Shown here: positions 11,102 to 64,000 of the stretch, in pieces
Layout of the letters: each line of letters starts with the position of its first letter
How positions within the stretch are numbered: the first letter of the stretch is position 1
Origin: Escherichia phage EJP2
Sequence record: OQ411014.1
Length of the DNA: 64,000 bases
Direction: 5' to 3' (one strand)
Translations under genes and position numbers: made by a program
Notes under the pieces: model-generated
What the model was told of the DNA's origin: nothing
Seen by the model: the letters and a program-made list of their open reading frames with translations, nothing else
Database searches by the model: none

Positions 11102-11191
11102 AGAAGGTTGGCAGAGCGGCTAAATGCACTCGCCTACTAAGCGAGCACTCGCTCCGGCGAGTCGAGGGTTCGAATCCCCCACCTTCTGCCA
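11102..11191 (+). tRNA. type II tRNA with unusual anticodon loop (apparent anticodon ACU; identity uncertain)
   Basis: Acceptor AGAAGGT/ACCTTCT, T-loop GGTTCGAATCC, long variable arm, encoded CCA; anticodon stem CTCGC/GCGAG with loop CTACTAA. Confidence 0.6.
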
Positions 11192-11204
11192 TATTAGGAT
11201 TTCA

Positions 11205-11594
11205 ATGATGACAATGCATGTGTACGATGAGTATGAAGAACGTATAAAACATGAAATCCAAAGTTATTTGGATGGTGTCAATAAAAAATTGAAATACAGT
11301 TCGGGTAAACGTTTTCAATCATTCACCCTAGAATACATGGATTGTGATGATTATAAACAACGCAGAATAACTATAAAAATTGCAGTTGATCCGAAGTTTA
11401 GTTGTGTGCATTCATCTTTACAGATAGATTCCACTTTTGGTGAAGATGAAGATCAATACTGGAGTGGTTTTTCCTATATACCAGAAAGTGAAGAAAAGCA
11501 CTTTCAAGAAACGTTACTCAATAAACAGATTTTAAGCTGGGATTTATTGCAGTACTTGATTGTTTTCTTCACTAAAATGCAAAATAAAGATTGA
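11205..11594 (+). CDS. FFQ-motif family protein
   Basis: ORF track 11124..11594 trimmed because track start lies inside the tRNA; ATG after AGGAT RBS; motif SEEKHFQETL. Confidence 0.5.
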   Translation: MMTMHVYDEYEERIKHEIQSYLDGVNKKLKYSSGKRFQSFTLEYMDCDDYKQRRITIKIAVDPKFSCVHSSLQIDSTFGEDEDQYWSGFSYIPESEEKHFQETLLNKQILSWDLLQYLIVFFTKMQNKD

Positions 11595-27786: not shown

Positions 27787-28929
27787 TTAATCTTTTCCAG
27801 CAATTACGATAGAACCAGCAAACCCATCGAGGGCTGTTAGTACTATATCATCTGCGTCATTAACCTGAACCTGAACAGTACAAACTGATGTACCATCATA
27901 TACAGTATATGACATATTGGATTTACCATGTTGTGCTTTGGTAATAGAAGCACTTGAGGAACCATCACCATTTGGTGTCCATGATAGAGCAGAACGGAAT
28001 GGAACACTTTGAGATGTTTTACCAATAATAACAACAACAGCGGCAGACGCAGCACTTTGTGTAACAGTAATGTTACCACTTGCATCTACGTCTACAGTAC
28101 TGAATTGTACTGCGTCATCTTGAGGTTCATGTAACTGAACAACCAGGTCCGCACCACGTCCGTGAATGATAGCAGGAACAGTAGCTTTGTACTGACCATC
28201 TGATTGTATTGCAAAATCAGCAGGAGCAATGTTGATTGAAGTTACATAGTCAGAATCAGCACCATCTGCATATACAGGGAATTGTACTTGAATTTCATTG
28301 TAATTCGGTGAAGTAATTGTTATAGTAGCTGTACCAGTTTGGGAGATAACCACTGGAGAAATACTGAATGTTCCATCTGGATTAACAGTACCTTCATATT
28401 CAGAACCATCTGGTAGAACAATTTTAACAACCATATCAGTAACGTCTAGAGCACCCGAACTAGAGGTGATAGCACCACTAATTTCAGTATCATTAACGTG
28501 AACTGGATTGATTACGATGTTGTCAATATCTGGTAGAGGGATAGTACATGTAGGTGTGTACATATCATAAAGCGTTTTACCAGTACTGAGAATTATTTTG
28601 TTCAATAGGAAACGAATGACGAAACCTTCCTTGGTCTTTTGATCATTGTAACCCCTTACAAAGAAGGTATTGCGTGGAATCTTAGCCAAGATTTGATCGT
28701 TATTTTCTAGATAATCCAGAACTCTACCCTCGGTGTCATAACCAGTGAGTAGTACTTTTTGATAAATTGTGTTTGTCGCAGGATCAATAAGGTCGAACAT
28801 TACATCAGAACGTTGTTTGTATATACGTAACATCTTTTTCTTTGTAAAGTCTCGCAGATATGCCCCATCAACTACAAATCCACAAACCCCATAAGGATAA
28901 TCCCCAACCCCAGCTATCGGTTTAGCCAT
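27787..28929 (-). CDS. Ig-like domain protein (possible virion decoration or adhesin)
   Basis: ORF track 27787..29025 trimmed to ATG (MAKPIAG) preceded by AAGGAG RBS; S/T/V/G-rich beta-sandwich-like repeats. Confidence 0.55.
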   Translation of the reverse strand: MAKPIAGVGDYPYGVCGFVVDGAYLRDFTKKKMLRIYKQRSDVMFDLIDPATNTIYQKVLLTGYDTEGRVLDYLENNDQILAKIPRNTFFVRGYNDQKTKEGFVIRFLLNKIILSTGKTLYDMYTPTCTIPLPDIDNIVINPVHVNDTEISGAITSSSGALDVTDMVVKIVLPDGSEYEGTVNPDGTFSISPVVISQTGTATITITSPNYNEIQVQFPVYADGADSDYVTSINIAPADFAIQSDGQYKATVPAIIHGRGADLVVQLHEPQDDAVQFSTVDVDASGNITVTQSAASAAVVVIIGKTSQSVPFRSALSWTPNGDGSSSASITKAQHGKSNMSYTVYDGTSVCTVQVQVNDADDIVLTALDGFAGSIVIAGKD

Positions 28930-29049
28930 AGATAAACTCCTTTTTTTGTTTTTCATTATGAACGTATTTACCCCTTGACATGTGATTATGCTTGTATTAT
29001 GATACATGCATTGATTGACGCACATGTAATAAAGAACATTAAATGTGTG

Positions 29050-48229: not shown

Positions 48230-48826
48230 ATGCTATTCAATAAAAGTAATTATTTTTCAGTACCGAAGGTTTCTGGCAAACCGCTCCAAATGACTTTTGA
48301 TATGAATATCAGTACTATATTCTATAATTTGCTTCGCATTCAAAATAATGATAAAGAGTTCGTCTTGGGTAAAGCAGCAATTTACAATTCAGATGATATT
48401 CCTTTGATTTGTGATTTTGATAAAATTCTTGAAGCAGCACGTTCAGCCACCAGTAGAGTATATAAATTCACTGTTTGTGATTTGTCACAGAAGGTACTTG
48501 ATTATAGTTTCTATATGGATGAAGAAAGTTTGAAGGTAAGTATCACAAATATCATCAATGCAGACATTACCCTTGATAAGAAACCGCACCTTTCGATCAC
48601 AGATAATGAGACTGGGGAAACTCGAAGTGGTACTGTGAATGAAATTTATGATCATTACTTCCATGCACAGATTGCACCTAAAAATGATTCTACTATGTCT
48701 GTAGTACTGGACATGGAAGAAGTACTGAATGAAATGCGTCCTATTATTCAGAATGGTACTGACGTAGAAAAGTCCAACGCAAAAGCAATCCTGGCGTATG
48801 TTGCAGCTAAATTGGCTAAACAATAA
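48230..48826 (+). CDS. hypothetical protein (198 aa), paralog of 53302 gene
   Basis: ORF track; C-terminus LNEMRPIIQNGTDVEKSNAKAILAYVAAKLAKQ matches VNDMREQIKSGTDKEKIEAKAVLSYIATKIALKQ. Confidence 0.6.
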   Translation: MLFNKSNYFSVPKVSGKPLQMTFDMNISTIFYNLLRIQNNDKEFVLGKAAIYNSDDIPLICDFDKILEAARSATSRVYKFTVCDLSQKVLDYSFYMDEESLKVSITNIINADITLDKKPHLSITDNETGETRSGTVNEIYDHYFHAQIAPKNDSTMSVVLDMEEVLNEMRPIIQNGTDVEKSNAKAILAYVAAKLAKQ

Positions 48827-48832
48827 AAGAAA

Positions 48833-48856
48833 AAAGGAGACTTTGTAGTCTCCTTT
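48833..48856. terminator. bidirectional rho-independent terminator
   Basis: AAAGGAGAC-TTTGT-AGTCTCCTTT between convergent genes. Confidence 0.6.
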
Positions 48857-48860
48857 CTTT

Positions 48861-50039
48861 TTATGGTAAATCAAATTCCGTATATGAATATTTGTATACA
48901 CCATCTGGTCCACGACCTGAGTATCGTAATTTACCAGAAGTAGTTATATATGCTGAAGTAATATTACTAGTACTGAATATGTTAAACACTGACTTCATAT
49001 CATTCACTGTACCGTTACCGAATGGTATCAGGTTAAGTTCATTGCCGTTGACACCAGTACTCAATCTTCCTGAAGAATTTGCTCCACAACCATATGCATT
49101 TGATGGGCTAAGAGCAACGTAACCAGTATTACTAGTATAATAACTTAGTAAACCAATAAAATTCTCTGTAGTGGCTATTTCAGTAAAGACTCTAATATTG
49201 ACAGAACTATTCACTCCATTACCTAAGTTTCCAGCATTCTGGCTTCCCGCAGCATATAGATGTGTTTTACCAGTACCGTCACTGTACAATATTGTGAATG
49301 CTGATTCAGTTAGACCAATATCAAAAACACTAAGACCTGGGTCTGGTAGTGGTACTTGTGTTAGCACATTTATTCTTGTATCTGGATGACCAATACCGAG
49401 TTGACCAAATGAGTTTGAACCTGAAACCCAAACACTTAAATCATTTTTTAATATCAGTACTGATGAATTAACAAATTCAACTTTTTGAACATCTGATGTA
49501 AGTTTTGAGAAAGTAGTTAGTGCAAGATAATTACCAGTTGCTAGTTGGCCTTGGTTATTAAAACCGCTTCTATAAAGATCACCATTGTTCATTAATATAT
49601 ATAATGCATATACACCAGCATGAACAGATGTTATTTGATTAAGATTCCCTGTACCTATACCAGCTTCAATAAATGGGGTACAATCAGTATATGATGTCAC
49701 AACTTCAGTAGATGATGTATTGCCAGTTTGAAAGCTACGGCGACCAGTATATAATAATTTTCCATCCATAGTTTTAATGATAACAAAACTTGTGTTTGTA
49801 CACCAAACATCTTGAACATCATCTCTGATTAAAGTCCACTCTAGCTTTTGTTCTGTTGGCTTTCCATCCCCATAGATATAATTATCAACTGTTCCTCCAC
49901 CGATACCATACAATCTGTTATCATCATATAATACCATAAATGCCGGACGAGACGATGCATAAGGTACTAATATTTTTGTAATTTCAGGTAATGAAGGTGC
50001 TTTATTACCATAATTAAGCATTCGTACAAAAGGTAACAT
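48861..50039 (-). CDS. RCC1-like repeat (beta-propeller) protein (392 aa)
   Basis: ORF track; GGAGA RBS on minus strand; repeated G-x-N-x-x-G-Q/N-L-G motifs (GFNNQGQLATG, GSNSFGQLGIG, GSQNAGNLGNG). Confidence 0.65.
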   Translation of the reverse strand: MLPFVRMLNYGNKAPSLPEITKILVPYASSRPAFMVLYDDNRLYGIGGGTVDNYIYGDGKPTEQKLEWTLIRDDVQDVWCTNTSFVIIKTMDGKLLYTGRRSFQTGNTSSTEVVTSYTDCTPFIEAGIGTGNLNQITSVHAGVYALYILMNNGDLYRSGFNNQGQLATGNYLALTTFSKLTSDVQKVEFVNSSVLILKNDLSVWVSGSNSFGQLGIGHPDTRINVLTQVPLPDPGLSVFDIGLTESAFTILYSDGTGKTHLYAAGSQNAGNLGNGVNSSVNIRVFTEIATTENFIGLLSYYTSNTGYVALSPSNAYGCGANSSGRLSTGVNGNELNLIPFGNGTVNDMKSVFNIFSTSNITSAYITTSGKLRYSGRGPDGVYKYSYTEFDLP

Positions 50040-50148
50040 AATTAAATCTCCGTCTAATAATTATAATGTATTTACCAAAAAGGACTTGACAGTACTGAAC
50101 AGTACTAGTAGAATTGTATCCAAGATAACTCACTAAGGAATATCCAAA

Positions 50149-50439
50149 ATGACAACTGTTACTTATTATCAAACACGCCGCCTTTTTGACATGACTGAAG
50201 GGCGTGGCCCAATGATCAATGATTTGGCATTCACTGAGTACCGCCATGCTGAAGCATACATCAACTCCCAACCTGGTGTTATGGGTCGTCGCTGTAACTG
50301 GACACAAGAGCGTCATGCGTCTGACTGGGACATTCAAACAGTACACGCCAGGACTGAAGCCTATGATCCACAAGAAGAAGCACGTCAGCGTGCATTAGCT
50401 AAACTAACCAAAGAAGAACGTAAACTACTAGGACTCTAA
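50149..50439 (+). CDS. hypothetical protein (96 aa)
   Basis: ORF track; TAAGGAA RBS; promoter TTGACA at ~50082 with two CAGTACT copies in spacer. Confidence 0.55.
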   Translation: MTTVTYYQTRRLFDMTEGRGPMINDLAFTEYRHAEAYINSQPGVMGRRCNWTQERHASDWDIQTVHARTEAYDPQEEARQRALAKLTKEERKLLGL

Positions 50440-50440
50440 T

Positions 50441-50653
50441 ATGACAGTACAACTAAAAACTTATAAAGAAGATGATAAAACATATGTAGCTACTGGTTTT
50501 ATCAAAGACAATGGCTTCCATCGTGCACACGATCAACGTCAATACACAGCAGAACGTGCTGGCGGTGAAGTACTCAACACTGACAGCTATGATGATGCAT
50601 TAGCTTTCATTGCTGCCGGACTAGGTAAACCAGAGCGGTTATATACGTTATGA
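50441..50653 (+). CDS. hypothetical protein (70 aa)
   Basis: ORF track. Confidence 0.5.
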   Translation: MTVQLKTYKEDDKTYVATGFIKDNGFHRAHDQRQYTAERAGGEVLNTDSYDDALAFIAAGLGKPERLYTL

Positions 50654-50916
50654 AATACATTCTAGTACTTCTAAGTATCTTCTTTCTTACGGCATGTGAA
50701 CCGGAAGAAGAACGTGAAGAACGTATTGATGCGAAGTATCTGGTGGCGAATGATTGTAAGTACACTGGCGAATCCTTTATAAACGAAGAAACCATTATGG
50801 TGGGTCCAGCCCGTTTCTCTAGGCCAGAGGTCGTTGAGAAGCGTTATTACGTGTATAAATGCAGTCAAGAGCGGAAGGTTCTCGCTACAGTTCGATTTGA
50901 AATTGAAAAAGAATAG
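50650..50916 (+). CDS. lipoprotein (88 aa)
   Basis: ORF track; signal MKYILVLLSIFFLTAC with lipobox LTAC. Confidence 0.55.
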   Translation: MKYILVLLSIFFLTACEPEEEREERIDAKYLVANDCKYTGESFINEETIMVGPARFSRPEVVEKRYYVYKCSQERKVLATVRFEIEKE

Positions 50917-52016: not shown

Positions 52017-52262
52017 ATGAAATTTATTAGTGCAATTATTCTTTCGATGACTTTATTGGTTGGATGTTCAACTGATTTCATGAAAGAAGCATACGTTGGT
52101 GAAGTGAATGGACGTACAATCGTCTTCTTCAAAGATATCCAACGTAACGGTATGCAGTACTACACTCCGCAGTTTGCATCTGTATGCCGTGATATGTTCG
52201 GGGTAAGTTCACCATGTAGGATAAAAGAAACTGCAATCAAAAACATTCGTCCATACAAATAA
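52017..52262 (+). CDS. lipoprotein (81 aa)
   Basis: ORF track 51987..52262 (TTG) trimmed to ATG after TAAGGAAA RBS; signal MKFISAIILSMTLLVGCS with lipobox LVGC. Confidence 0.55.
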   Translation: MKFISAIILSMTLLVGCSTDFMKEAYVGEVNGRTIVFFKDIQRNGMQYYTPQFASVCRDMFGVSSPCRIKETAIKNIRPYK

Positions 52263-53301: not shown

Positions 53302-53964
53302 ATGCCAATTCCATTGTTTCATGAAAGTAATACATTCACTATCTACAAAAATAATGGCGAACTGAAGACTATTCACTTCACTGGTCACAAAGTAGGTTTG
53401 TATTACAAGTTGTATTCAATCCTACGTAAGAGTCACAACTTCAATATGCCTTCAGTAACTGTACGTGATATTACAGGGCGGGTATTATCCAATGGAAACT
53501 TCTTGGATATCTATTTTGAGTTGATTGATGTATTGAAAGCAGAACACAAGTACTCAATCATGACGACCAATAGTGTTGGTGAAGATCTATATCACTTCCG
53601 TGATGAACCTGAAGGTGTACTGCAACAACTGAAGCATCTGAGAGATACATATACTAAAAATGGTGATCCGCGTCGTTTTGAATATCACACAGTAGTACGA
53701 AGAGATGACTCATCGTTTATTCGTAACAAGTTGGATTATTTGATTATAGAATACCAGAAAATTGCTGATGCAGAGAACTCAGAGAAAGCTGGCGAAACCG
53801 ACTGCATTGGTGAAACTGGCGAAATGGGGTTAGGTGTGTACCTGGAGTTCGATGAAGTAGTGAACGATATGCGTGAGCAAATCAAATCAGGTACTGACAA
53901 AGAGAAGATTGAAGCTAAAGCAGTACTGTCATATATCGCTACTAAAATAGCACTGAAACAGTAA
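53302..53964 (+). CDS. hypothetical protein (220 aa), paralog of 48230 gene
   Basis: ORF track; TAGGAAA RBS; shared C-terminal block. Confidence 0.6.
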   Translation: MPIPLFHESNTFTIYKNNGELKTIHFTGHKVGLYYKLYSILRKSHNFNMPSVTVRDITGRVLSNGNFLDIYFELIDVLKAEHKYSIMTTNSVGEDLYHFRDEPEGVLQQLKHLRDTYTKNGDPRRFEYHTVVRRDDSSFIRNKLDYLIIEYQKIADAENSEKAGETDCIGETGEMGLGVYLEFDEVVNDMREQIKSGTDKEKIEAKAVLSYIATKIALKQ

Positions 53965-53974
53965 AATAAAAGGG

Positions 53975-54004
53975 TTGACTTCGGTCGGCCCTTTTTGCTA
54001 TAAT
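53975..54004 (+). promoter_or_regulatory. terminator-promoter module (GGGTTGACTTCGGTCGGCCC, TATAAT)
   Basis: Same architecture as 53240 copy. Confidence 0.55.
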
Positions 54005-54034
54005 CATTTCAACTTCTGATGAAAGGAAAATTAT

Positions 54035-54283
54035 ATGTTCGCACTACGCCACAAAGAAACAAAGAACTTCATGTGTATTGATACACAGTGGGATTGCTTT
54101 GGTAGTACTGAAGTATTGGAAGAACACGCTGAGAACGTCTTTGTTGTTAGTGAACGTTCATTGTTGGAAGCACTAATTGAGGACTTCAATGCTGGTACTA
54201 ATGCATTCTCTCTGAACTTTCCGGTTGTTGCAGATCCAGAAGCATTTGTTATGTACGAAATTGTAGAACTTACTGTGAAATAG
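54035..54283 (+). CDS. hypothetical protein (82 aa)
   Basis: ORF track; AAAGGAAA RBS. Confidence 0.5.
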   Translation: MFALRHKETKNFMCIDTQWDCFGSTEVLEEHAENVFVVSERSLLEALIEDFNAGTNAFSLNFPVVADPEAFVMYEIVELTVK

Positions 54284-54300
54284 TATCATTGGAGATAACC

Positions 54301-54597
54301 ATGAAAGCACTGACCGCCGTAGAAATCAAAGAGCAATACAAAGATTTATTCGAGTTTAAACACAACGGTGAAGAATTCAAACGTAGTAGTACTGTACGTG
54401 ACTTCTTGAACAAACTCTTCTGTACTAAGTTCAAAGCTGCGTACATTACTATGCCTGAGCGTACTTCAAGTGCAGAAGATATCAAGAAGTTCGGTTTAGG
54501 TTGGGATGCACAATCAATCATCCTGGTGAATGCAGATGAAGAGCTAGTGTACTTGACTAACTCCGAGTGGGCTTCTTTCATGTATCTTCGTAAATAA
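54301..54597 (+). CDS. hypothetical protein (98 aa)
   Basis: ORF track 54289..54597 (TTG) trimmed to ATG after GGAGA RBS. Confidence 0.5.
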   Translation: MKALTAVEIKEQYKDLFEFKHNGEEFKRSSTVRDFLNKLFCTKFKAAYITMPERTSSAEDIKKFGLGWDAQSIILVNADEELVYLTNSEWASFMYLRK

Positions 54598-54606
54598 GGA
54601 ACTATA

Positions 54607-54789
54607 ATGAAACTGAAACGTTATGACCGCAATCGTATTATGGATGCTTTGTATCGTGAAGAAATTTCACTCAATAAGGTGAAAGTGTACTTTATGTTAG
54701 AAGGACGGCTTCCAGCACGTAAAGCTAAACAGTTAGCTATTGAACTGTTGAACGAAGGTATTGAGTACTGGCATTATGACGGATATTGA
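54607..54789 (+). CDS. hypothetical protein (60 aa)
   Basis: ORF track; TAAGGAA RBS. Confidence 0.45.
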   Translation: MKLKRYDRNRIMDALYREEISLNKVKVYFMLEGRLPARKAKQLAIELLNEGIEYWHYDGY

Positions 54790-54800
54790 TTTGTGAAATA

Positions 54801-54856
54801 AAAGGTTGACTTCGGTCAGCCTTTTTCGTATTATGTACTCATCGAAACGAAGGAGA
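54801..54856 (+). repeat. repeated ~55 bp promoter-leader cassette, copy 1 (hairpin with TTGACT, TATTAT, leader, AAGGAG)
   Basis: Near-identical to copies at 56641 and 56937. Confidence 0.6.
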
Positions 54857-54865
54857 TATAAAAAA

Positions 54866-55102
54866 ATGAAACTATCTTTTATACGATTGGGTCAATTCTT
54901 CGGTACTAATGTTATAACTTTACAACAAATTGCAGATAATACATCTCTAACGATTCAAGAAGTACTTGACTTGGATGACATAAATTACGATACTACATGT
55001 ATCGAGTACAAAGAAGGTCTTATCGAAAAGGATAAGATTCAGGCTAAAATTAATGGTGCTGGAAAAGTTCAGTACTGGAAGGGAGTGTTAAGTAATGTGT
55101 AA
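54866..55102 (+). CDS. hypothetical protein (78 aa)
   Basis: ORF track 54806..55102 trimmed: track start is TTG of the promoter -35 and the first 20 codons translate the cassette; ATG after AAGGAG RBS. Confidence 0.5.
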   Translation: MKLSFIRLGQFFGTNVITLQQIADNTSLTIQEVLDLDDINYDTTCIEYKEGLIEKDKIQAKINGAGKVQYWKGVLSNV

Positions 55103-56192
55103 CTTTGATGTTTTAGATTGTTTTTCTGTAGATGAAATTATTTATGAACCCAAATCACATAATTCAGTATCCCCAGGGCAATATGAAAAGAAAATAACAG
55201 AGTTATTTTCATTAAATGATCATAATGTTGTTTTTATCGGATTCAATATGAAAACCGCCAATGAATGGCAAGCGGGTGATACTAAAGTACATTTTAAACT
55301 CGTCAACAAATATTACGAGGATATTTTTTCTGATGTGACAATAGAAAAGATTATCAAAAAATTTAAGAAAAAAACCTACAAACCTAAACATAAAAAATTA
55401 ACAATGGAAATTATTGAATATCAGGCCAAGGCTGTATCTTACTTAAAAGGCCATCGGATTATATCATTTGGTCCATTTGATGGTGCACTCACTAAAATTG
55501 AGATGGAATGTCTAATGGATTCACATACGTGGTCTACCAGTTACAATTCATATGTGACAAATGACAAAGGTTGTGTTAAATGTGGAATTGTAGTGACCTC
55601 TGAGTTTCACCGGACAAATCACGATGATGTGAACTTGTTCTTAAAAGAAAATGGAGATATTAACAATTATGATTTATATGAAGAATTCATATATTCTAAT
55701 AATTTAACAATAATAAAAAGAATTTGCAAAATATGTAATCATGGTAAATGTGGAGAATGGAAAACGTCTTATGAATGCATTAAGAATCGTGATCATCAGT
55801 GTCCAGTATGTAAGACAACTGAAGCTCGGTGCATCAAACGTGATCTAGATCCGATTTTTAGTGGGTTCGGTGTGGTAGAATGTGAAAAAAAATATGATGA
55901 TTGTAGGATGATTAATCATTTACGCTACGACCGCTTCATCCCGAAACTCAACATGTTATTTGAATATGATGGAGAGCAACATTTCAATAAGAGGAACATT
56001 CGTTGGCATGGTGAAAGTGGTGAAAAACGTGATCAAATAAAAACAGAGTTCGCAATCAACAACGGTTACAACTTCATTAGGATTGCATACTATGAAGACC
56101 ACGTTGCAGTACTGGAATCTTTCCTTAAACTCATAGAAGAGAACCCAGGAAAGCAAATCGTACAGATCTATGGTGATGTGAAAATTATCTAA
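55095..56192 (+). CDS. PD-(D/E)xK nuclease-like protein (Vsr/DUF559-like), possible homing endonuclease
   Basis: ORF track; C-terminal FEYDGEQHF..RDQIKTEFAINNGYNFIRI resembles E-x-DG-x-x-H..RD..GW-x-x-R nuclease core; Cys-rich middle; markedly AT-rich. Confidence 0.5.
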   Translation: MCNFDVLDCFSVDEIIYEPKSHNSVSPGQYEKKITELFSLNDHNVVFIGFNMKTANEWQAGDTKVHFKLVNKYYEDIFSDVTIEKIIKKFKKKTYKPKHKKLTMEIIEYQAKAVSYLKGHRIISFGPFDGALTKIEMECLMDSHTWSTSYNSYVTNDKGCVKCGIVVTSEFHRTNHDDVNLFLKENGDINNYDLYEEFIYSNNLTIIKRICKICNHGKCGEWKTSYECIKNRDHQCPVCKTTEARCIKRDLDPIFSGFGVVECEKKYDDCRMINHLRYDRFIPKLNMLFEYDGEQHFNKRNIRWHGESGEKRDQIKTEFAINNGYNFIRIAYYEDHVAVLESFLKLIEENPGKQIVQIYGDVKII

Positions 56193-57004: not shown

Positions 57005-57775
57005 ATGAACCGCACAGAAAAAGCAATGCAAATCGAAAAGAACTTCAACTCCATGATGGCTGCTCTTGAATGTCTTCTGGATACCCAAGCTAACTCAATC
57101 AACTCTCTGATTGTTTCTGGTAAAGGTGGTGTTGGTAAAACTTATAACGTAGACAAACGTCTGCAACAAGCAGATAACAACTACGAAATCGACTACAAAA
57201 AGATTTCTGGTAAAGTAACTACTATGGGTCTGTACGAAGCACTGTATCACTCTCGCCACGCTGCTTCAGTACTGTTACTCGATGACGTTGATATCTTCGG
57301 TGACGAAACTAATATCGACCTCCTTAAAGCAGTACTGGATACTTCCGATAAGCGTGTTGTTTCTTATGCAACTTCCGGTAAGCACTTGGACGCGATGGGT
57401 ATTCCTAAGCAGTTCGAGTTCCGTGGTAAAGTGATCTTCCTGACGAACAAAAACCTGTCACAGATTGCTAAAGGTAAAAGCAGTTTAGCACCACACATCG
57501 ATGCTCTGATTACTCGTAGTATCTTCGTGGACCTGCAACTGTTCAGCAACGAAGAAGTAATGATTCACATCGAAAACGTTATGTCCAAAACTAACATTCT
57601 GGAAAACCAGTTCGTTAGTCCAGAAGGTGCAGGTCACATTCTGAACTTCATGCTCAAGAATGAAGATCGTCTGCGTAGTCCTTCTCTGCGTATGCCAGTA
57701 CTGATCGCTGGCTTGTATAATAAGTTCCCGTTTGATTGGGAATCAATGGCTGAAAACATGTTCCTGGAGAAATAA
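57005..57775 (+). CDS. P-loop ATPase with deviant Walker A (ParA/MinD-like)
   Basis: ORF track 56939..57775 trimmed to ATG after TAAGGA RBS; Walker A SGKGGVGKT, Walker B-like VLLLDDVD; host-optimal codon usage. Confidence 0.6.
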   Translation: MNRTEKAMQIEKNFNSMMAALECLLDTQANSINSLIVSGKGGVGKTYNVDKRLQQADNNYEIDYKKISGKVTTMGLYEALYHSRHAASVLLLDDVDIFGDETNIDLLKAVLDTSDKRVVSYATSGKHLDAMGIPKQFEFRGKVIFLTNKNLSQIAKGKSSLAPHIDALITRSIFVDLQLFSNEEVMIHIENVMSKTNILENQFVSPEGAGHILNFMLKNEDRLRSPSLRMPVLIAGLYNKFPFDWESMAENMFLEK

Positions 57776-57776
57776 T

Positions 57777-58154
57777 ATGCAAATGTTCTTGACACCTTTT
57801 GGTTCAATCTGTTTAGTACTGGAAACTTTCCTATCTGTTGCAGTACTATGTATGCTGATTGGGAAGTTCTTTAATGCTCGCCCATTCAATAAGTACTATG
57901 ATGCAATTTATGATCAAAGTGAAAGTGAAGGCGTAGCTATCTTTCAATTGCTGGTGGCTATCGTAATCGCTACTATCCTTGCATGGATTGGTATCATCGG
58001 GGAATTCGAACTCCTAACAGAATTTTCAGTTGTAGCAGCTTCTGTGTGTACTGCCTTTACAATTCTGTACTTTACAATCTGTGCAGTGGATGCTATTATT
58101 CCTTATATCAAAAACGTGCACCACAAAATCGTAAAGAAAACCAACGGGGAATAA
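57777..58154 (+). CDS. multi-pass membrane protein, tandem family member 1
   Basis: ORF track 57732..58154 trimmed to ATG after GGAGA RBS; C-terminus HHKIVKK. Confidence 0.5.
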   Translation: MQMFLTPFGSICLVLETFLSVAVLCMLIGKFFNARPFNKYYDAIYDQSESEGVAIFQLLVAIVIATILAWIGIIGEFELLTEFSVVAASVCTAFTILYFTICAVDAIIPYIKNVHHKIVKKTNGE

Positions 58155-58155
58155 A

Positions 58156-58284
58156 ATGAAACCTGAGCAGTGGATTATTGATGACATGCGTTCTATGCGA
58201 GCAATTAAAGAACGCACATACGTACAAGAACAATATCTCGAACTCTTGATGTGGTACGTAAAAGTACTGAACTCTAAGGAATAA
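58156..58284 (+). CDS. small hypothetical protein (42 aa)
   Basis: Uninterrupted frame found by hand; GGGGA RBS. Confidence 0.35.
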   Translation: MKPEQWIIDDMRSMRAIKERTYVQEQYLELLMWYVKVLNSKE

Positions 58285-58286
58285 TT

Positions 58287-58634
58287 ATGTCTGCATATAC
58301 TATGATTACATGTTCTAATCTTGTTAGTATTGCGTACTTTATGTACGTCGCACTTATGGTTGTATGTTGGTACTTTCGCTTGTCAAAGGTTTATTGTGCA
58401 ATTGTCCCAAGTTCTGAATTTGGGATGTTCTTTATAAAATTCATGTTCATTGTTACATCAGTAACGAACTTCCTACAACTTATGGACTCCTTCTTCCCAG
58501 GTACTGGTGAGCCAGTAGCGTTTGCATTCTATATGAACGTTGCAATTGCCGGAGCTTTATTAGGTTGGTTCTTACTGTGTAAAGTAGTGAATTACCTTTT
58601 GTACATCCGAGCAGAACATATTCCACGGAGATAA
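58287..58634 (+). CDS. multi-pass membrane protein, tandem family member 2
   Basis: ORF track; TAAGGAA RBS. Confidence 0.5.
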   Translation: MSAYTMITCSNLVSIAYFMYVALMVVCWYFRLSKVYCAIVPSSEFGMFFIKFMFIVTSVTNFLQLMDSFFPGTGEPVAFAFYMNVAIAGALLGWFLLCKVVNYLLYIRAEHIPRR

Positions 58635-58637
58635 TAA

Positions 58638-58985
58638 ATGAATTCGTTCTTTTCTTCATTAGCAGCATTAGCAACAGAAAACACACTATACACCATCTTC
58701 ATTTGTACTCTATCATTATGTTATGGTGCAATGTGGTTCACTAATCATCGCTGGTTCCATGTTATTGATAAGAAGTTCGGTATAGTAGTATTTGCAATAC
58801 ATTTAGCAACACTAGTAGCAGTACTGACGTGGGTGATTGATACTCTAGCTCCAGGAAAGCCCGTTGGGATGGTTATCAACTTCATGTATTGGGTTGTGAT
58901 GGGTGTATTTGTTGGTGGTGTATTCATCTTTGAATATATGTCAAAGATTCGTAAAAAATATTTTATTGATAAAGGAAACTACTAA
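58638..58985 (+). CDS. multi-pass membrane protein, tandem family member 3
   Basis: ORF track. Confidence 0.5.
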   Translation: MNSFFSSLAALATENTLYTIFICTLSLCYGAMWFTNHRWFHVIDKKFGIVVFAIHLATLVAVLTWVIDTLAPGKPVGMVINFMYWVVMGVFVGGVFIFEYMSKIRKKYFIDKGNY

Positions 58986-59323
58986 TGTTTTATTTCTGTT
59001 CAGCAGTAATGCTATTGTGGATCTTCACATGGGTTAGTTGGATCTTCTGTCTAGATATCGCCAAATGGTTCGACAAACAACTCAAATACACTACATATGA
59101 CTTTGATGGTAAGATCTTTATCATAATCGTTTCGGTTTTTGCTGTCATCGCTGAAGTTCTTGCGTGTCTTGGTATCTTTGTGATGCACGGTAAGGACTCA
59201 ACGGTACTATTGGTAATTGCTACACTAATTACTAGTACTACCTTGATATCTTATGTAGTTTCGTTTATAATCTTTTGTGTCGTCCCCTGGAGGGATAAAC
59301 TAGCACGTAAGAAAGGATATTAG
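58985..59323 (+). CDS. multi-pass membrane protein, tandem family member 4
   Basis: ORF track. Confidence 0.5.
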   Translation: MFYFCSAVMLLWIFTWVSWIFCLDIAKWFDKQLKYTTYDFDGKIFIIIVSVFAVIAEVLACLGIFVMHGKDSTVLLVIATLITSTTLISYVVSFIIFCVVPWRDKLARKKGY

Positions 59324-59324
59324 T

Positions 59325-59681
59325 ATGGAATCATTATCACCGTTCGGGTTAGGTATTTGGTACATGAACGTAGTCATTTCAGTACTGATAGTGTTGTTGT
59401 TCGTACTGAAGTTCTTCCATGTATCACCGTTTTATAAGTTCTATGACTCAATGATAGAAACTGCTGTTATTGTTCCTATTCTGTCTGTGGTATATGTAAT
59501 ATGCACATTGATTCTAGTGCCATCAAATATCAATACGTTCTGGACTATTTTTGGGATGATGATCCCAACGTTGTATGATATTTGTTTAGTAGTTTTCTTA
59601 TTCATTTTAGGACTACTCGGTGCATATCAAGGCTTAGAGAATCTTCACAAGAAAATCGTTGATAAAAAGGTAAATCGATAA
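59325..59681 (+). CDS. multi-pass membrane protein, tandem family member 5
   Basis: ORF track; C-terminus LHKKIVDKK parallels member 1. Confidence 0.5.
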   Translation: MESLSPFGLGIWYMNVVISVLIVLLFVLKFFHVSPFYKFYDSMIETAVIVPILSVVYVICTLILVPSNINTFWTIFGMMIPTLYDICLVVFLFILGLLGAYQGLENLHKKIVDKKVNR

Positions 59682-60019
59682 TGAATATTTCACCTGACTT
59701 CATCGTACTAGTGAACTGCATGAGTATCTTTGTATGTGCATGTTCACTGTTCCTTGCTGTTATCTGGTTCTTTGACACTCCATTATGGAACCATTTTACC
59801 AGTACTGATGGATGTACCTTCATTGTTATTCCAGTGCAATTGTTCCTTACTGTTCTAGTACTTACAGGTCAGTACGCAACAACTGGTGGTAATATGAAGC
59901 CATACGAAATATTATTCCTAGGTATTCTTCTCGGAATGGCAGTAAACATCGGTTCAGTACTAGTAGCTTTAGTAATGTACTGGAGAACAAAGATGCTAGA
60001 ACGTCGTGATAGACGATAA
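59681..60019 (+). CDS. multi-pass membrane protein, tandem family member 6
   Basis: ORF track. Confidence 0.5.
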   Translation: MNISPDFIVLVNCMSIFVCACSLFLAVIWFFDTPLWNHFTSTDGCTFIVIPVQLFLTVLVLTGQYATTGGNMKPYEILFLGILLGMAVNIGSVLVALVMYWRTKMLERRDRR

Positions 60020-60174
60020 AAAATAGTTTCAAATAACCCAGTCCTAATGGCTGGGTTTTGCTCTTGAATGTATTAAATACATTTTTAGACAATATCTTTC
60101 TTGTCTAATGCTTAAAAAAACAAGAGGAAATAAATGATAAATTTTGACTTCTATTTGATTGTTGAGGACTGTAT

Positions 60175-60477
60175 ATGCTAATTTATATATTGACCTCGAT
60201 TGTTGTGTATTATCACGTATGTATACTATTAGGTACTTCGCTGTTGTTGCTAGACTATGCTTTGGATGTAAACTATCTCGAAGGTTATAGATGGATTGCG
60301 GACGAGCCTCTCTTTATAATGTTGTGGTTCGTTGAGATCCCAATGATTATAGGATATGCATTGTCTTTCTACATGAACAGTACTTTAATATTAAGCATCT
60401 TATGGGTTAGTACTTTCATAGTACTAATAACTATCTTATTAACGTTAATTGGATATTATATACATAAAAATGTATAA
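60175..60477 (+). CDS. multi-pass membrane protein (100 aa)
   Basis: ORF track; GAGGA RBS. Confidence 0.5.
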   Translation: MLIYILTSIVVYYHVCILLGTSLLLLDYALDVNYLEGYRWIADEPLFIMLWFVEIPMIIGYALSFYMNSTLILSILWVSTFIVLITILLTLIGYYIHKNV

Positions 60478-60565: not shown

Positions 60566-61243
60566 ATGCATAAGAAGACACAAAAGAAGAAATCCCGTAC
60601 ATTCAAACATTACTTACACAGTTTTAAGTTCTGGCGGTACAGGTCTAAGTTATATGAGAAGATGTATGATGTTGGGCGTGAACCTTGGCAGTACTATTCG
60701 ACTTACTCATTGGCAGTTCGAGAAAACGATTATGGCATTTCTAAGAAAGTACATAAGCTATTAGAAGCCTGTAATGTACGTTTGGACTATGCAGAAGTAC
60801 TACATGACTTTGTGTACATGTACATGGCAAAACCAAATGACCAAATGCACTACACAAGTGGTGAATTTATACACAGCAATACACAGTACGAATTCAATAT
60901 CATGGGGGATAAATCCTTTATGATCCGTGAGTACAATCGTGCTGATCCACAGGTGTATATTTCGTACAAGAAAGGTTCAGTAAAGGTAGAACTAAAGTAC
61001 GCATACAGTGCTAGACCTAAAAATAATGATGAGCTACAAGAAGCTCTCACTAAGCACGTACAATCTGAACTAACCGAAGCGGAGTTATTTCAGTACACAA
61101 TTATGTACGAACAGTTCGAGAGACTCATTTTCATGTTGAATCTGCTTAAACCTTTATGTATATTCAAAGATACTAAAGTAAATGCCTATTCGTTGTACAC
61201 ACTATTCAGTACTCACGAGACTTACAAAGGACAATTACAATGA
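60566..61243 (+). CDS. large FFQ-family paralog (225 aa)
   Basis: ORF track; GGAGA RBS; motif LTEAELFQYTIMYEQ. Confidence 0.6.
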   Translation: MHKKTQKKKSRTFKHYLHSFKFWRYRSKLYEKMYDVGREPWQYYSTYSLAVRENDYGISKKVHKLLEACNVRLDYAEVLHDFVYMYMAKPNDQMHYTSGEFIHSNTQYEFNIMGDKSFMIREYNRADPQVYISYKKGSVKVELKYAYSARPKNNDELQEALTKHVQSELTEAELFQYTIMYEQFERLIFMLNLLKPLCIFKDTKVNAYSLYTLFSTHETYKGQLQ

Positions 61244-61860
61244 AGCTAACAGCCTTACAGAAGCACTATCAACAAACGTTCAATTTCTACCGAACTCGAT
61301 ATCATCGCACACACGGAGCAACAATCTATCGCCCTCGTAGATTGGGACGTGTACGTAAAGGAGGTAAGTTCTTCAAAAAGATCTGTAACGAACTGAACAT
61401 CAAATGTCATGGACTGTACGGTTCTAATTCTAATGGCAAAGTAAACGTAAATGAAAACCTTCGCAGTGGTACACGTATTGATACGGTTGCTGGGAATATC
61501 TACACATCCGAAAGCCGGATGTATTTCCCTAAAGGTAAGTCCGAAGATTCTCGCTATGTATTGTGTTATGATTCTTGTGAGTCACCGCTTAGTATCGAAG
61601 ATATCATGGTACTTGATTATAAGTTCGAATACCAGGATGATTCGGTCACTAGTGAAGAACTAACCGACATCGTTCAGAAGCACCTAAAAGGTACTCTAAC
61701 GGAGGCAGAACTATTTGTAGCCCTACTATACCATGAAGAGGTAATGCAGCTTCTGGCTGGTGCTGAGATGCTTTATAAGCTATTTGGATACGTACACAAA
61801 GAGCAAGTATCACTCATTGACATTTATGTTTCAGTACTGAAGAGTGAGCAATCTAAATGA
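61240..61860 (+). CDS. large FFQ-family paralog (206 aa)
   Basis: ORF track; motif LTEAELFVALLYHEE. Confidence 0.6.
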   Translation: MKLTALQKHYQQTFNFYRTRYHRTHGATIYRPRRLGRVRKGGKFFKKICNELNIKCHGLYGSNSNGKVNVNENLRSGTRIDTVAGNIYTSESRMYFPKGKSEDSRYVLCYDSCESPLSIEDIMVLDYKFEYQDDSVTSEELTDIVQKHLKGTLTEAELFVALLYHEEVMQLLAGAEMLYKLFGYVHKEQVSLIDIYVSVLKSEQSK

Positions 61861-62531
61861 AGATGAACCGTTTTGGGAATCACTACAACAAGTACTTCAA
61901 ACATATGCACTACGTACAAGCAGAATCTACTACTTCTGCGTATGTATATAACCGTAATGCAACCAGACGGACTCATATGCGTAGGTCGTTTTCTGCTGTA
62001 CTGAAGAAGTTCATGCGAGCTAAAGGATTTATGTTCAAAAAAGATACACGGTCTGGATGGTCTTGGGAGAACCATAACACATCACCATCATCTGTGTATA
62101 ATATAGGTCTAACATATTTCAGTTTTATGATTGATGATATTCCTTGTTTGGTTTCGTATTATACATATCCATATACCTACAATGTCACTGTATATGTGAA
62201 TTATATATCAGTCGATGATGATGAAAAATTACTGAAACAAAACGTTATTCAAGTTGGTATATCAAATGAAGTATACGCCGCCCAGGATAAAGAGTTGGAG
62301 GATATTCTTAGGAAAAAGTTACCAAAGTACCATGAAGTACTGACGGATGAAAAGATGTTTCAGTACAGTACAATGATACCGAATGCAGATGTATATTGGA
62401 AAGCTAACAATATATATCATAATATTACACAAATGATAATGAGTAGTTATCATGAGAACATACATCACCCATACAATAAAAAGAATAAAACAATCATTCA
62501 TTTATTGAATTGTATCTTGAAGGAATTATAA
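61857..62531 (+). CDS. large FFQ-family paralog (224 aa)
   Basis: ORF track; motif LTDEKMFQYSTM. Confidence 0.6.
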   Translation: MKMNRFGNHYNKYFKHMHYVQAESTTSAYVYNRNATRRTHMRRSFSAVLKKFMRAKGFMFKKDTRSGWSWENHNTSPSSVYNIGLTYFSFMIDDIPCLVSYYTYPYTYNVTVYVNYISVDDDEKLLKQNVIQVGISNEVYAAQDKELEDILRKKLPKYHEVLTDEKMFQYSTMIPNADVYWKANNIYHNITQMIMSSYHENIHHPYNKKNKTIIHLLNCILKEL

Positions 62532-62537
62532 AAGAAA

Positions 62538-62566
62538 AATGCCAGTACATATTTTAGTACTGGCAT
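62538..62566. terminator. bidirectional rho-independent terminator
   Basis: AATGCCAGTAC-ATATTTTA-GTACTGGCATT hairpin between convergent genes. Confidence 0.55.
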
Positions 62567-62570
62567 TTTG

Positions 62571-63701
62571 TTAAAATGGTAAATCTATTTGTTTGGTAAT
62601 CGTCATACCTAAAGGTATTGAACACATTGACATATTTTTCCCATTTAGATTGGAAGGCGGCTGTCCGTTCATCCATATATTGGTATCGTCATAGAATGTA
62701 CTCCACCACGTAGAACCACCTTCTATGTGAATATTTTGATTAAAATCAGCGAATTGGCATTCTTGAAAAACTTCAAAAAACGGAATAGATGATAAACTAC
62801 TACTAGTAAATGGTGTATATCCTGTTGCCATTAACTTATTCGTATCTGAATTTACTAAAAAGATAACATTACCTGCATTGTATGGTACATATTTGGGATA
62901 TAAATTACTCATATCACCAATAGGGAAGTTAATATTAAATATTTTACTATGCGTACCCGTTCCTGAAAGTGTAGTACCAGTTACGTATATTTTATTATCA
63001 GTTGTACCCATAATAAACCCAATACCAAACCCAGAACAAAATGTAATGTCGTATGAAACATTATCAAATAGTTGAACAAACGTAGTTACATCACCTGCTG
63101 GACTTTGTATTTGTAAACTATTGTTTGCACCTGCTCCCCAAACAGTTCCGTTACTTTTCACTTTGAATAAAGTATCTCCTATATAGTGACCATATATGCT
63201 ATCAACTTCAGTATCAAGTTCTGTCCATTGTGACACAAAGTTTTTATGCCCTAAACCTAAACACCCATTACGATTAAGCCCTCTACCGTACAATGTACCA
63301 TCATTCATCAATACAAATACTGTATATCCACATAACATTTTTTTAATTTGTGTAACGTCGATACCATTAAAATACCCACTCCAATCTGCATAACCTTGTT
63401 GCATTGTCGAAGAATTTGTAAATGCTTGTGTTGGCCCTGAACCATATATTTTACCACCTTTAATAATGACTGAAAACGATCCCAACCACACATCTTGAAC
63501 ATCCTGAGCAATTGTTTTCAATTCACCATATGCAGTTAAGGGAGTACTTTGCCCTGAACTATATGTTGAATCTTCTCCGTGTGCATATAATGTTCCATCT
63601 TGTGTTAGAATCATTTCTAAGTAAACAGCACTTACACTTTTCTTTATTTTATTAACTTCTATTTTATTTCCGTACTTCAACATCCTTGCAAAAGGTAACA
63701 T
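62571..63701 (-). CDS. RCC1-like repeat (beta-propeller) protein (376 aa), paralog of 48861..50039
   Basis: ORF track; shared N-terminus MLPFARMLKYGNK vs MLPFVRMLNYGNK; motif GLNRNGCLGLG; GGAGA RBS on minus strand. Confidence 0.65.
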   Translation of the reverse strand: MLPFARMLKYGNKIEVNKIKKSVSAVYLEMILTQDGTLYAHGEDSTYSSGQSTPLTAYGELKTIAQDVQDVWLGSFSVIIKGGKIYGSGPTQAFTNSSTMQQGYADWSGYFNGIDVTQIKKMLCGYTVFVLMNDGTLYGRGLNRNGCLGLGHKNFVSQWTELDTEVDSIYGHYIGDTLFKVKSNGTVWGAGANNSLQIQSPAGDVTTFVQLFDNVSYDITFCSGFGIGFIMGTTDNKIYVTGTTLSGTGTHSKIFNINFPIGDMSNLYPKYVPYNAGNVIFLVNSDTNKLMATGYTPFTSSSLSSIPFFEVFQECQFADFNQNIHIEGGSTWWSTFYDDTNIWMNGQPPSNLNGKNMSMCSIPLGMTITKQIDLPF

Positions 63702-64000
63702 GATAATCTCCTATCGATCAAATTTAAAATCTGTTATGTGTGTCCAAACATGTGGTAATGGTGTACTCAATGGTGTAAATCCAGCAGGGTCTGACAAAGT
63801 ACTACCACATGCGTACATAAATTGATTACCAGTACAATCCATTATAGCATAAGAACGTGTAGCTGTACCACATTTGAATCCAACTGCACTGCTTGGTGTT
63901 GGTAATACTTCAAATGTTAGTGCATTTGATGAACCACCACCATCCTTTGTACCTGCGATGTATAGTACTCCATTATTATCAATGATTAAGTTGGTCCAAT
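63677..64000 (-). CDS. hypothetical protein, partial (5' end beyond window)
   Basis: Uninterrupted minus-strand frame from window edge to a stop ~25 nt inside the start of the 62571..63701 gene; G/T/S-rich like neighbours. Confidence 0.4.

Follow-up and report, generated by a model that had tools for sequence, protein, structure and literature searches.

RCC1-type genes in the window

Escherichia phage EJP2 (sequence record OQ411014.1) carries, in the 64,000-nucleotide stretch analysed here and referred to below as the window, three minus-strand genes for RCC1-type proteins: two complete genes, RCC1-A and RCC1-B, and the end of a third, RCC1-C, which is cut by the window edge. These genes are a divergent new lineage of a known phage family, PHROG 4219, that is multi-copy in Rak2-like jumbo phages. 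The window has a GC content of ~37% and consists almost wholly of small plus-strand open reading frames (ORFs) together with six tRNA genes. Sizeable minus-strand genes are few, comprising 27787..28929 and the three RCC1-type genes.

48861..50039, minus strand: RCC1-A, 392 amino acids (aa), dispersed copy of the phage RCC1-like propeller family (ORF; Pfam RCC1, RCC1_2 and WD40_RLD; phrog_4219; AlphaFold2 (AF2) model and Foldseek)
62571..63701, minus strand: RCC1-B, 376 aa, last gene of a tandem RCC1 array (ORF; Pfam; phrog_4219; continuation of the array in the close relative L010)
63711..64000, minus strand: RCC1-C, the adjoining array gene, of which the window has the C-terminal 95 codons; 392 aa in the relative (translation)

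An earlier reading of the letters and ORFs of this DNA (below, the sequence-only reading) had placed two minus-strand genes here, and both are present as ORFs of 392 and 376 aa. A third minus-strand RCC1-type gene, said to run off the window edge and to overlap RCC1-B, does run off the edge, and its translation is identical to the C-terminus of N4_12472, a 392-aa array gene of the close relative. The overlap does not exist: the stop codon of RCC1-C (TAG, 63713..63711) and the ATG of RCC1-B (63701) are separated by a 9-nt spacer that carries a ribosome-binding site. Because of this spacing, RCC1-C and RCC1-B are probably co-transcribed.

Fold and family of the RCC1-like proteins

RCC1-A and RCC1-B are paralogues, as had been proposed. 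They have a common N-terminus (MLPFVRMLNYGNK in RCC1-A and MLPFARMLKYGNK in RCC1-B) and align by BLASTP at 31% identity over 232 aa (E 4e-20). RCC1-A scores above the Pfam gathering thresholds of PF00415 (32.8 versus 21.7) and PF13540 (24.3 versus 22), and RCC1-B above that of PF13540 (24.7 versus 22). The whole-domain model PF25390 scores 85.4 for RCC1-A (E 6e-24) and 41.3 for RCC1-B (E 1.6e-10), both under its strict cut-off of 150. The phrog_4219 profile matches both proteins, with E-values of 9e-57 (RCC1-A) and 5e-41 (RCC1-B), and RCC1-A has no Pfam or PHROG match beyond RCC1 and tail-protein families.

The AF2 model of RCC1-A, built on 25 homologues, contains ~28 strands and has a predicted local distance difference test score (pLDDT) of 86.5 and a predicted template modelling score (pTM) of 0.86. 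Foldseek searches with this model return the RCC1-like domains of UVR8, RCC1, RPGR and HERC2, with a best E-value of 8e-21 and a template modelling (TM) score of 0.77. As the model superposes on these domains, the RCC1-type propeller fold read from the repeats was predicted correctly. RCC1-A, RCC1-B and RCC1-C are each a predicted seven-bladed propeller of ~380 aa.

The seven-bladed propeller and the GxNxxGQLG repeat signature are shared with eukaryotic RCC1 and UVR8 and with bacterial BLIP-II and secreted RCC1-like proteins, but identity to these proteins is 14–19% and the window proteins have no Ran or chromatin context. Bacteria possess neither Ran nor nucleosomes. The paralogues have isoelectric points of 5.2–7.6, except for the truncated phAPEC6 gp007 (9.2), and a lysine plus arginine content of ~6%; to judge from composition, this low basic-residue content argues against direct condensation of DNA. 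The label ‘chromosome condensation’ attached to these proteins in phage genomes rests on the eukaryotic analogy, and we argue that the annotation is misleading.

A conserved N-terminal peptide

All of the more than 40 paralogues inspected, from nine phages, begin with a variant of the consensus M[LIF]P[FI]x[RK][IM]xxYGN; RCC1-A starts with MLPFVRMLNYGN and RCC1-B with MLPFARMLKYGN. The set comprised the window and L010, phAPEC6 (twelve copies within its first 14 kb), PBECO4, GAP32, Yersinia phage fHe-Yen9-04 (four genes), Xanthomonas phage XaC1 (two genes), Salmonella phage 7t3 (eleven genes) and 4MG. The 4MG protein gp038, from the Vequintavirinae, has a related MFPIP start in which the YGN part is not kept. 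Among database homologues, the motif is restricted to phage-type proteins of ~380 aa. In its place, bacterial RCC1-like homologues have signal peptides or lipoboxes; the start of the window proteins is the MLPF motif, a phage-specific tag and no signal peptide.

In the RCC1-A model, the first ten residues have a pLDDT of 53, with a low-confidence helix at residues 2–8, and the first strand begins at residue 19. From the low pLDDT and the position ahead of the first strand, the model predicts that the peptide is an appendage outside the propeller. A role as the closing (‘velcro’) strand of the propeller was considered and rejected in view of the modelled helix at residues 2–8 and the first strand at 19.

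The same start is found on a protein that is not of RCC1 type. GAP32_002 (210 aa) and 7t3_0126 (233 aa), which are 31% identical to each other (E 3e-23), both carry it and belong to phrog_6011, annotated ‘virion structural protein’, with a weak match to ConA-like lectins. GAP32_002 adjoins an RCC1 gene, and 7t3_0126 lies inside the RCC1 array behind the same upstream cassette as its neighbours.

A cleavable capsid-targeting sequence of the T4 type was also considered and rejected, as no conserved (L/I)xE-type cleavage site follows the motif among the paralogues compared; phAPEC6 gp003, gp005 and gp006 contain no glutamate in their first 25 residues. Searches for the N-terminal motif strings found no occurrence in the searchable papers, and the family-wide peptide, like the conserved cassette set out below, appears not to have been described before.

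Regulatory cassette, promoters and terminators

Where an array gene opens a transcription unit, a cassette stands ahead of it, made up of a hairpin with the stem CCAGTAC/GTACTGG, a T-run, [GT]TAAATA[CT], NNTAT[AG]AT, GGAG and the ATG, and taking in the codons for the N-terminal motif. The remaining array genes stand directly behind the preceding gene, as RCC1-B stands behind RCC1-C. Cassette copies are on average 79% identical from −75 to +39, as against 45% over the next 360 nt of coding sequence, and the RCC1 gene bodies have diverged to 22–35% protein identity while the cassette has been conserved. The divergent lineage of the window separates what is invariant in this family (the N-terminal tag and the regulatory cassette) from what is variable (the propeller). 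An 80-nt cassette sequence from phAPEC6 occurs 7–13 times in most Asteriusvirus genomes (4–13 times over the records listed), and 7t3, GAP32 and fHe-Yen9-04 also have recognisable hairpin and TAAATA elements. Of the cassette, RCC1-A carries the promoter, the ribosome-binding site and the motif portion, and RCC1-B has the array-type hairpin at its 3′ end.

50060..50076, minus strand: late-like promoter motif GGTAAATACATTATAAT; it lies 20 nt ahead of the start codon of RCC1-A and is also found before array paralogues of L010
50048-50051, minus strand: ribosome-binding site of RCC1-A, GGAG
48830..48859, both strands: bidirectional hairpin terminator common to RCC1-A and the plus-strand gene ending at 48826
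62536..62569, both strands: array-type hairpin terminator GCCAGTAC...GTACTGGC, between the plus-strand gene ending at 62531 and RCC1-B
50086..50114, plus strand: sigma-70-like early promoter TTGACA-17-TAGAAT, divergent from RCC1-A; 11/12 match, TTGACAGTACTG class
27787..28929, minus strand: apart from RCC1-A and RCC1-B, the one minus-strand gene complete in the window; its product matches phrog_10468, a family of virion structural proteins (E 3e-126)

The hairpin at 48830..48859 has folding energies of −16.3/−16.6 kcal/mol (z −4.0/−5.4) on the two strands, and that at 62536..62569 has −19.1/−19.2 kcal/mol (z −5.8/−8.0). The stem sequence of the latter recurs in the cassettes of L010, phAPEC6 and 7t3. 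The sequence-only reading had each RCC1 gene bracketed by bidirectional terminators. Such terminators lie only at the 3′ ends of RCC1-A and RCC1-B and do not form brackets: the 5′ side of RCC1-A, a divergent promoter region, contains no significant hairpin (z −0.17).

The octamer GTAAATAC occurs just twice in the 64 kb, both times on the minus strand and ~30 nt upstream of RCC1-A and of 27787..28929, respectively. The GGTAAATAC motif at 28964-28972, upstream of 27787..28929, is likewise found upstream of RCC1-A. At the same spacing ahead of the start codon, phAPEC6 has (T)ATAAATA upstream of its major capsid, scaffold, portal-region and baseplate genes, and the RCC1 promoter motif is one mismatch from this sequence. 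A T4-late-like ATAAATA motif has been proposed for CBB and GAP32 (PMC5259590).

The extended early-promoter-like motif TTGACAGTACTG has 17 matches in the window with at most one mismatch, versus 0.6 expected, for example at 2965, 22486, 29050 and 50086 (plus strand). From these motifs, the minus-strand genes are read as putative autonomous late transcription units set antisense into the early region. Each such unit is read as being followed by a divergent sigma-70-like promoter of the TTGACAGTACTG... kind, which would restart plus-strand transcription.

Two further observations concern the same elements. The 8-bp palindrome CAGTACTG of the early-promoter motif TTGACAGTACTG recurs as the core of the hairpin arms of the RCC1 array, both in this lineage and in phAPEC6 and 7t3, and AGTACT lies just upstream of several phAPEC6 late promoters. 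The palindrome CAGTACTG may be a regulator binding site and is a candidate for one.

Relatives, copy number and the tandem array

PHROG 4219 is present in 1–13 copies in Rak2-like jumbo phages (121Q, PBECO4, phAPEC6, GAP32, Munch/7t3) and is also found in Vequintavirinae. Searches by tblastn returned 92 phage records with 1–12 copies per genome. The best protein matches of RCC1-A, at 25–32% identity, come from Asteriusvirus and other Rak2-like phages (PBECO4, 121Q, phAPEC6, G17 and Salmonella SD-1). These best-matching phages have 4–12 matching places per genome, annotated as ‘regulator of chromosome condensation’ or ‘DNA condensation protein’. The RCC1 copies of the window are only 22–35% identical to any deposited phage protein, and relatives were found at the protein level only: the 4 kb around the RCC1 finding gave no megablast match to deposited phages.

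A scan of IMG/VR viral contigs with RCC1-B found just one weak, partial relative, and the continuation of the array was recovered through a look-up of a neighbouring protein. The exact RCC1-A protein is encoded on five metagenome contigs, including a 236,674-bp ENA contig of a close relative (L010, NODE_4). The L010 array continues past the position of the window edge, and its genes, of 376, 392, 460, 368, 368, 396, 381 and 396+ aa, are all on one strand. The phage carries nine or more RCC1 paralogues.

The right-hand third of the window is syntenic, in reversed orientation, with phAPEC6 gp001–gp026, and also with PBECO4. In phAPEC6, the order is the RCC1 array, a gene of ~220 aa, five to six membrane proteins of ~112 aa, a 256-aa gene and the denV region. 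One L010 array gene is 75% identical to phAPEC6 gp009, and all other pairs are 22–35% identical. The array continuation in L010 and the synteny with phAPEC6 place RCC1-B and RCC1-C at the near end of the RCC1 array that is the hallmark of this phage group. This tandem array has at least eight genes, and RCC1-A is a dispersed, inverted extra copy that lies antisense in an early-gene run.

The window family has its nearest counterparts in the Rak2-like RCC1 paralogues (phAPEC6 gp001-010, 549 and 551; 121Q 234-248; PBECO4; GAP32_001). It shares with them the hidden Markov model (HMM) match, size, fold and N-terminal motif, as well as the terminator–promoter cassette, the tandem array and the position of the array beside a block of small membrane-protein genes. 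It differs from them in the 22–35% identity of its copies and in the dispersed, inverted placement of RCC1-A in an early-gene run.

Vequintavirinae W70_237-239 and 4MG gp038, an RCC1+Big_2 ‘tail protein’ of phrog_11922, share the RCC1-like propeller, the MFPIP... start (4MG gp038), tandem copies and virion association by mass spectrometry (W70). They belong to smaller phages (~145 kb), and the 4MG protein differs further in its additional Ig-like domains, its tail-fibre neighbour and the lack of YGN.

In phAPEC6 (L007), four MLPF-initiated ORFs of 380, 369, 396 and 244 aa, at positions 3, 2434, 6063 and 7325, are unannotated, and the annotated start of gp002 is apparently 36 codons too far upstream. 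Because these four ORFs lie outside the deposited annotation, the true number of RCC1 copies in phAPEC6 appears to exceed the published eleven. Three independent metagenome contigs (L011, L012 and L013) all end at the RCC1-C start codon, where the repeated 5′ cassette begins; assemblies seem to break at this point, and the array is therefore probably under-assembled in metagenomes. Between fEgEco12 and Ecwhy_1, which belong to the same species, two of the seven proteins with less than 50% identity are RCC1 proteins (PMC13070987).

Virion presence of homologues

Eleven RCC1-like proteins have been reported for phAPEC6, whose authors speculated on a role in the organisation of packaged DNA; mass spectrometry of the virion detected gp003, 005, 006, 007, 009, 010, 549 and 551 (Table 1 of PMC7247149). 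In Asteriusvirus-type jumbo phages, ~2% of all genes encode RCC1-like proteins, which account for roughly one in eight detected virion proteins. GAP32_001 has also been detected in virions, according to work cited in PMC5259590. The 140-kb phage W70 encodes three tandem phrog_4219 proteins, W70_237-239, which are virion components with spectrum counts of 141–233 (PMC11370258). The RCC1 copy numbers given for 121Q, PBECO4 and CBB are 13, six and none, respectively (PMC5259590).

The supplementary mass-spectrometry files for JP4 make no mention of RCC1 proteins, and the paper by Sharanji does not discuss the family. In the searchable literature, no function, particle location or receptor-binding role is assigned to phage RCC1 proteins; a search for a receptor-binding role of RCC1 proteins in phages returned only a locus-tag false positive. 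Since homologues of the same PHROG are found in the virions of phAPEC6, GAP32 and W70, a virion role for the RCC1 proteins of the window is plausible.

A lipoprotein gene near RCC1-A

The sequence-only reading had paired RCC1-A with a lipoprotein gene described as its divergent neighbour, in analogy to the receptor-binding protein and receptor-blocking lipoprotein of T5-like phages. The lipoprotein gene is the third of a conserved three-gene early module on the plus strand, and its start lies 610 bp from the start codon of RCC1-A.

50149..50439, plus strand: module gene 1, 96 aa, 63% identical to Munch_502
50441..50653, plus strand: module gene 2, 70 aa, 43% identical to Munch_503
50650..50916, plus strand: module gene 3, lipoprotein, 88 aa, lipobox LTAC, homologues 121Q_177 and Munch_504

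The call of a lipoprotein gene at 50650..50916 is upheld by the LTAC lipobox, which is conserved in the homologues from 121Q and Munch. The N-terminus of the protein reads MKYILVLLSIFFLTAC, and in addition to the lipobox two further cysteines are conserved in 121Q_177 and Munch_504. The Pfam model LPAM_1 matches weakly (E 0.42). The lipoprotein is not the divergent neighbour of RCC1-A, as module genes 1 and 2 lie between them.

Homologues of the lipoprotein are single-copy in 38 Rak2-like phages, one of them (in fEgEco12) annotated ‘lytic conversion lipoprotein’, and a large protein database contains just four close homologues. A search against Protein Data Bank sequences, which would include T5 Llp if deposited, gave nothing at E-values up to 10. 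The AF2 model of the lipoprotein has a pLDDT of 63, and Foldseek with this weak model returned nothing below E 0.78.

In Munch, the trio of 96-, 70- and 88-aa genes and a downstream 215-aa gene belong to a series of small genes that all point the same way, and the 4 kb around the module contain no RCC1 gene. Of the module region, 121Q has matches for the lipoprotein and the 215-aa gene only, and no RCC1 gene lies within 4 kb of its lipoprotein homologue. In phAPEC6, ~22 kb separate the homologue from the annotated array end, and in 7t3 it is ~13 kb or more away from the array. The best explanation for the proximity of RCC1-A and the lipoprotein gene is that a dispersed RCC1 copy landed at the boundary of an operon. 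The lipoprotein may well act in superinfection exclusion or modify the envelope.

A second small lipoprotein-like ORF (MKFISAIILSMTLLVGC...), which has no PHROG match, is found on the plus strand at 52017..52262, 1.1 kb downstream of the first.

Proposed role and alternative explanations

It is proposed that the RCC1-like proteins are late-expressed minor virion proteins, held by their N-terminal peptide and presenting a variable, ligand-binding propeller; taken as a whole, this reading is given a slightly better than even chance. The genes would be transcribed late from the T4-late-like promoter, and their products would be minor components of the virion, brought into or onto the particle by the N-terminal peptide. 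The diversifying propeller would serve as the ligand-binding module. The conserved cassettes would insulate each copy and would also supply homology for duplication and for exchange between phages, driving changes in copy number.

The preferred placement of the proteins is on the virion exterior, where they would act as accessory adhesins. This placement is the least secure step of the proposal. The lean towards the exterior comes in part from the 4MG homologue gp038, in which motif and propeller are fused to two Big_2 Ig-like domains and whose gene has a tail fibre gene as its neighbour. According to Fraser et al. 2006, as cited in PMC5259590, the Ig-like domains of phage proteins are surface features. 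The lean further reflects the lectin-like appearance of the co-tagged phrog_6011 protein, the neutral to acidic character of the paralogues, which is a poor composition for a DNA condenser, and the finding that prokaryotic RCC1-like proteins are mostly secreted or surface proteins. The divergence of RCC1 proteins between fEgEco12 and Ecwhy_1 points the same way. If they are accessory adhesins, these proteins would be relevant to host-range prediction and to the engineering of therapeutic jumbo coliphages.

An extension of the proposal, which we hold to be quite possible if somewhat short of even, takes the dodecapeptide M[LIF]P[FI]x[RK][IM]xxYGN as a portable virion-loading tag and the cassette as a plug-in system for modular surface adhesins. 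Any tagged cargo, be it an RCC1 propeller or the lectin-like phrog_6011 protein, would then dock at one site on the particle. The scheme would cover Rak2-like phages and, with the related MFPIP start, rV5-like phages. With terminator, late promoter and tag combined in one repeated cassette, these phages would be able to duplicate, exchange and diversify a whole panel of surface binding modules, giving an adhesin repertoire separate from the tail fibres.

A number of points weigh against the main proposal. The phAPEC6 peptide counts are low, at 1–5 unique peptides, so that co-purifying contaminants are still possible, and the phAPEC6 authors favoured an internal role (PMC7247149). The RCC1 products of EJP2 are known here from their genes alone, and the virion data are those of homologues. 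No cryo-EM density has been assigned to RCC1-like virion proteins, and the idea that they form the tail whiskers of CBB and phAPEC6 was rejected because CBB has whiskers yet no RCC1 gene (PMC5259590). Conservation of the N-terminus could stem from translation initiation or folding instead. The cassette also holds a TATAAT-like hexamer, and the late class is assigned by motif only; because of this hexamer, the assignment of a timing class falls short of proof.

The same peptide could act inside the head, as a capsid-targeting-like sequence that loads the propellers into the prohead, where they would form part of the inner body, organise the DNA or be ejected into the host. This explanation, the main rival but one that we regard as rather unlikely, fits the ‘DNA condensation protein’ annotation and the detection of homologues in virions by mass spectrometry, and phAPEC6 has an unassigned inner body. 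It was put forward by the phAPEC6 authors (PMC7247149) and repeated by the W70 authors (PMC11370258), and these phages encode a T4 gp21-like prohead protease.

A parallel exists in phage T4, whose internal proteins IPI–III are small, basic, virion-packaged proteins with a capsid-targeting sequence, encoded at a hyperplastic locus. By analogy with that locus, the window family consists of divergent paralogues that have in common only a short N-terminal peptide of ~10 aa, each with its own conserved promoter or 5′ region, with rapid turnover between related phages and with packaged products, as reported for homologues. The family differs from the T4 proteins in being made up of 40-kDa neutral propellers with no sequence similarity to them and no conserved protease cleavage motif. 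The missing (L/I)xE site after the tag, with several paralogues lacking glutamate in the first 25 residues, counts against loading by this route, as do the neutral to mildly acidic proteins with few basic residues, unlike DNA-condensing proteins, and the Big_2 domains and tail-fibre neighbour of the 4MG homologue. The family also occurs in the 140-kb Vequintavirinae, for which, to our knowledge, no inner body has been reported.

Distinctly improbable is a role outside the particle, in which the propellers would be non-structural intracellular effectors that bind host proteins such as defence factors and inhibit or redirect them, in the manner of BLIP-II on beta-lactamase, with their detection in virions due to carry-over. 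The RCC1/BLIP-II fold is a protein-binding scaffold, the fast turnover of paralogues fits an arms race, and the low phAPEC6 peptide counts would suit such carry-over. However, three unrelated preparations of virions independently yielded homologues, and the spectrum counts in W70 were substantial; the promoter motif is common to a structural-protein gene, and the N-terminal tag is common to phrog_6011, an annotated virion structural protein.

Finally, the pairing put forward in the sequence-only reading would make RCC1-A a receptor-binding protein and the lipoprotein a blocker of the same receptor, as for T5 pb5 and Llp. The resemblance is that a small early-type lipoprotein gene lies close to a gene for a putative virion protein, with the two on opposite strands. 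The lipoprotein is genuine and conserved and lies behind a sigma-70-like early promoter, like T5 llp, its fEgEco12 homologue bears the ‘lytic conversion’ annotation, and RCC1 homologues are virion-associated. Against this, there is no homology to T5 on either side, the lipoprotein having no sequence or fold match to solved lipoproteins (with a weak model) and the matches of RCC1-A being confined to RCC1 and tail-protein families in Pfam and PHROG. The two genes are not adjacent in the window, their linkage is not conserved in Munch, 121Q, phAPEC6 or 7t3, and nine or more RCC1 paralogues face a single lipoprotein copy. As nothing ties the lipoprotein to RCC1-A, the T5 analogy is unsupported and we consider the model highly improbable. 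The structural call of the sequence-only reading is right, and its functional pairing is not.

Other features of the window

The C-terminal half of the 27787..28929 product looks rich in Ig-like sequence; this gene, too, lies antisense within an early-gene run.

Relative to L010 2035..4953, the window region 53964..56192 has no denV (Pyr_excise) gene, and a DUF723-type protein has 365 aa in the window versus 466 aa in L010. In another relative, a 464-aa CapR-domain gene occupies the denV position. These differences suggest a small hot spot of mobile or accessory genes.

On the plus strand at 57732..60477, five to seven paralogous genes in tandem encode proteins of ~100–140 aa that are apparently multi-pass membrane proteins. 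The genes have syntenic counterparts in phAPEC6 (gp012c-017c) and in the matching PBECO4 block beside the RCC1 array. Three successive plus-strand genes of 206–225 aa follow at 60566..62531, with overlapping stop and start codons, and converge directly on RCC1-B; they look paralogous, with a common ...TEAELF... region.

ARAGORN calls a tRNA-Ser with the anticodon ACT at 11102..11191 (plus strand), a doubtful call that overlaps the ORF 11124..11594. The plus-strand genes 48230..48826 (198 aa), which is the gene convergent on RCC1-A, and 53302..53964 (220 aa) encode proteins with a similar C-terminal segment of ~40 aa (..GTD.EK..AKA.L.Y.A.K.A.KQ).

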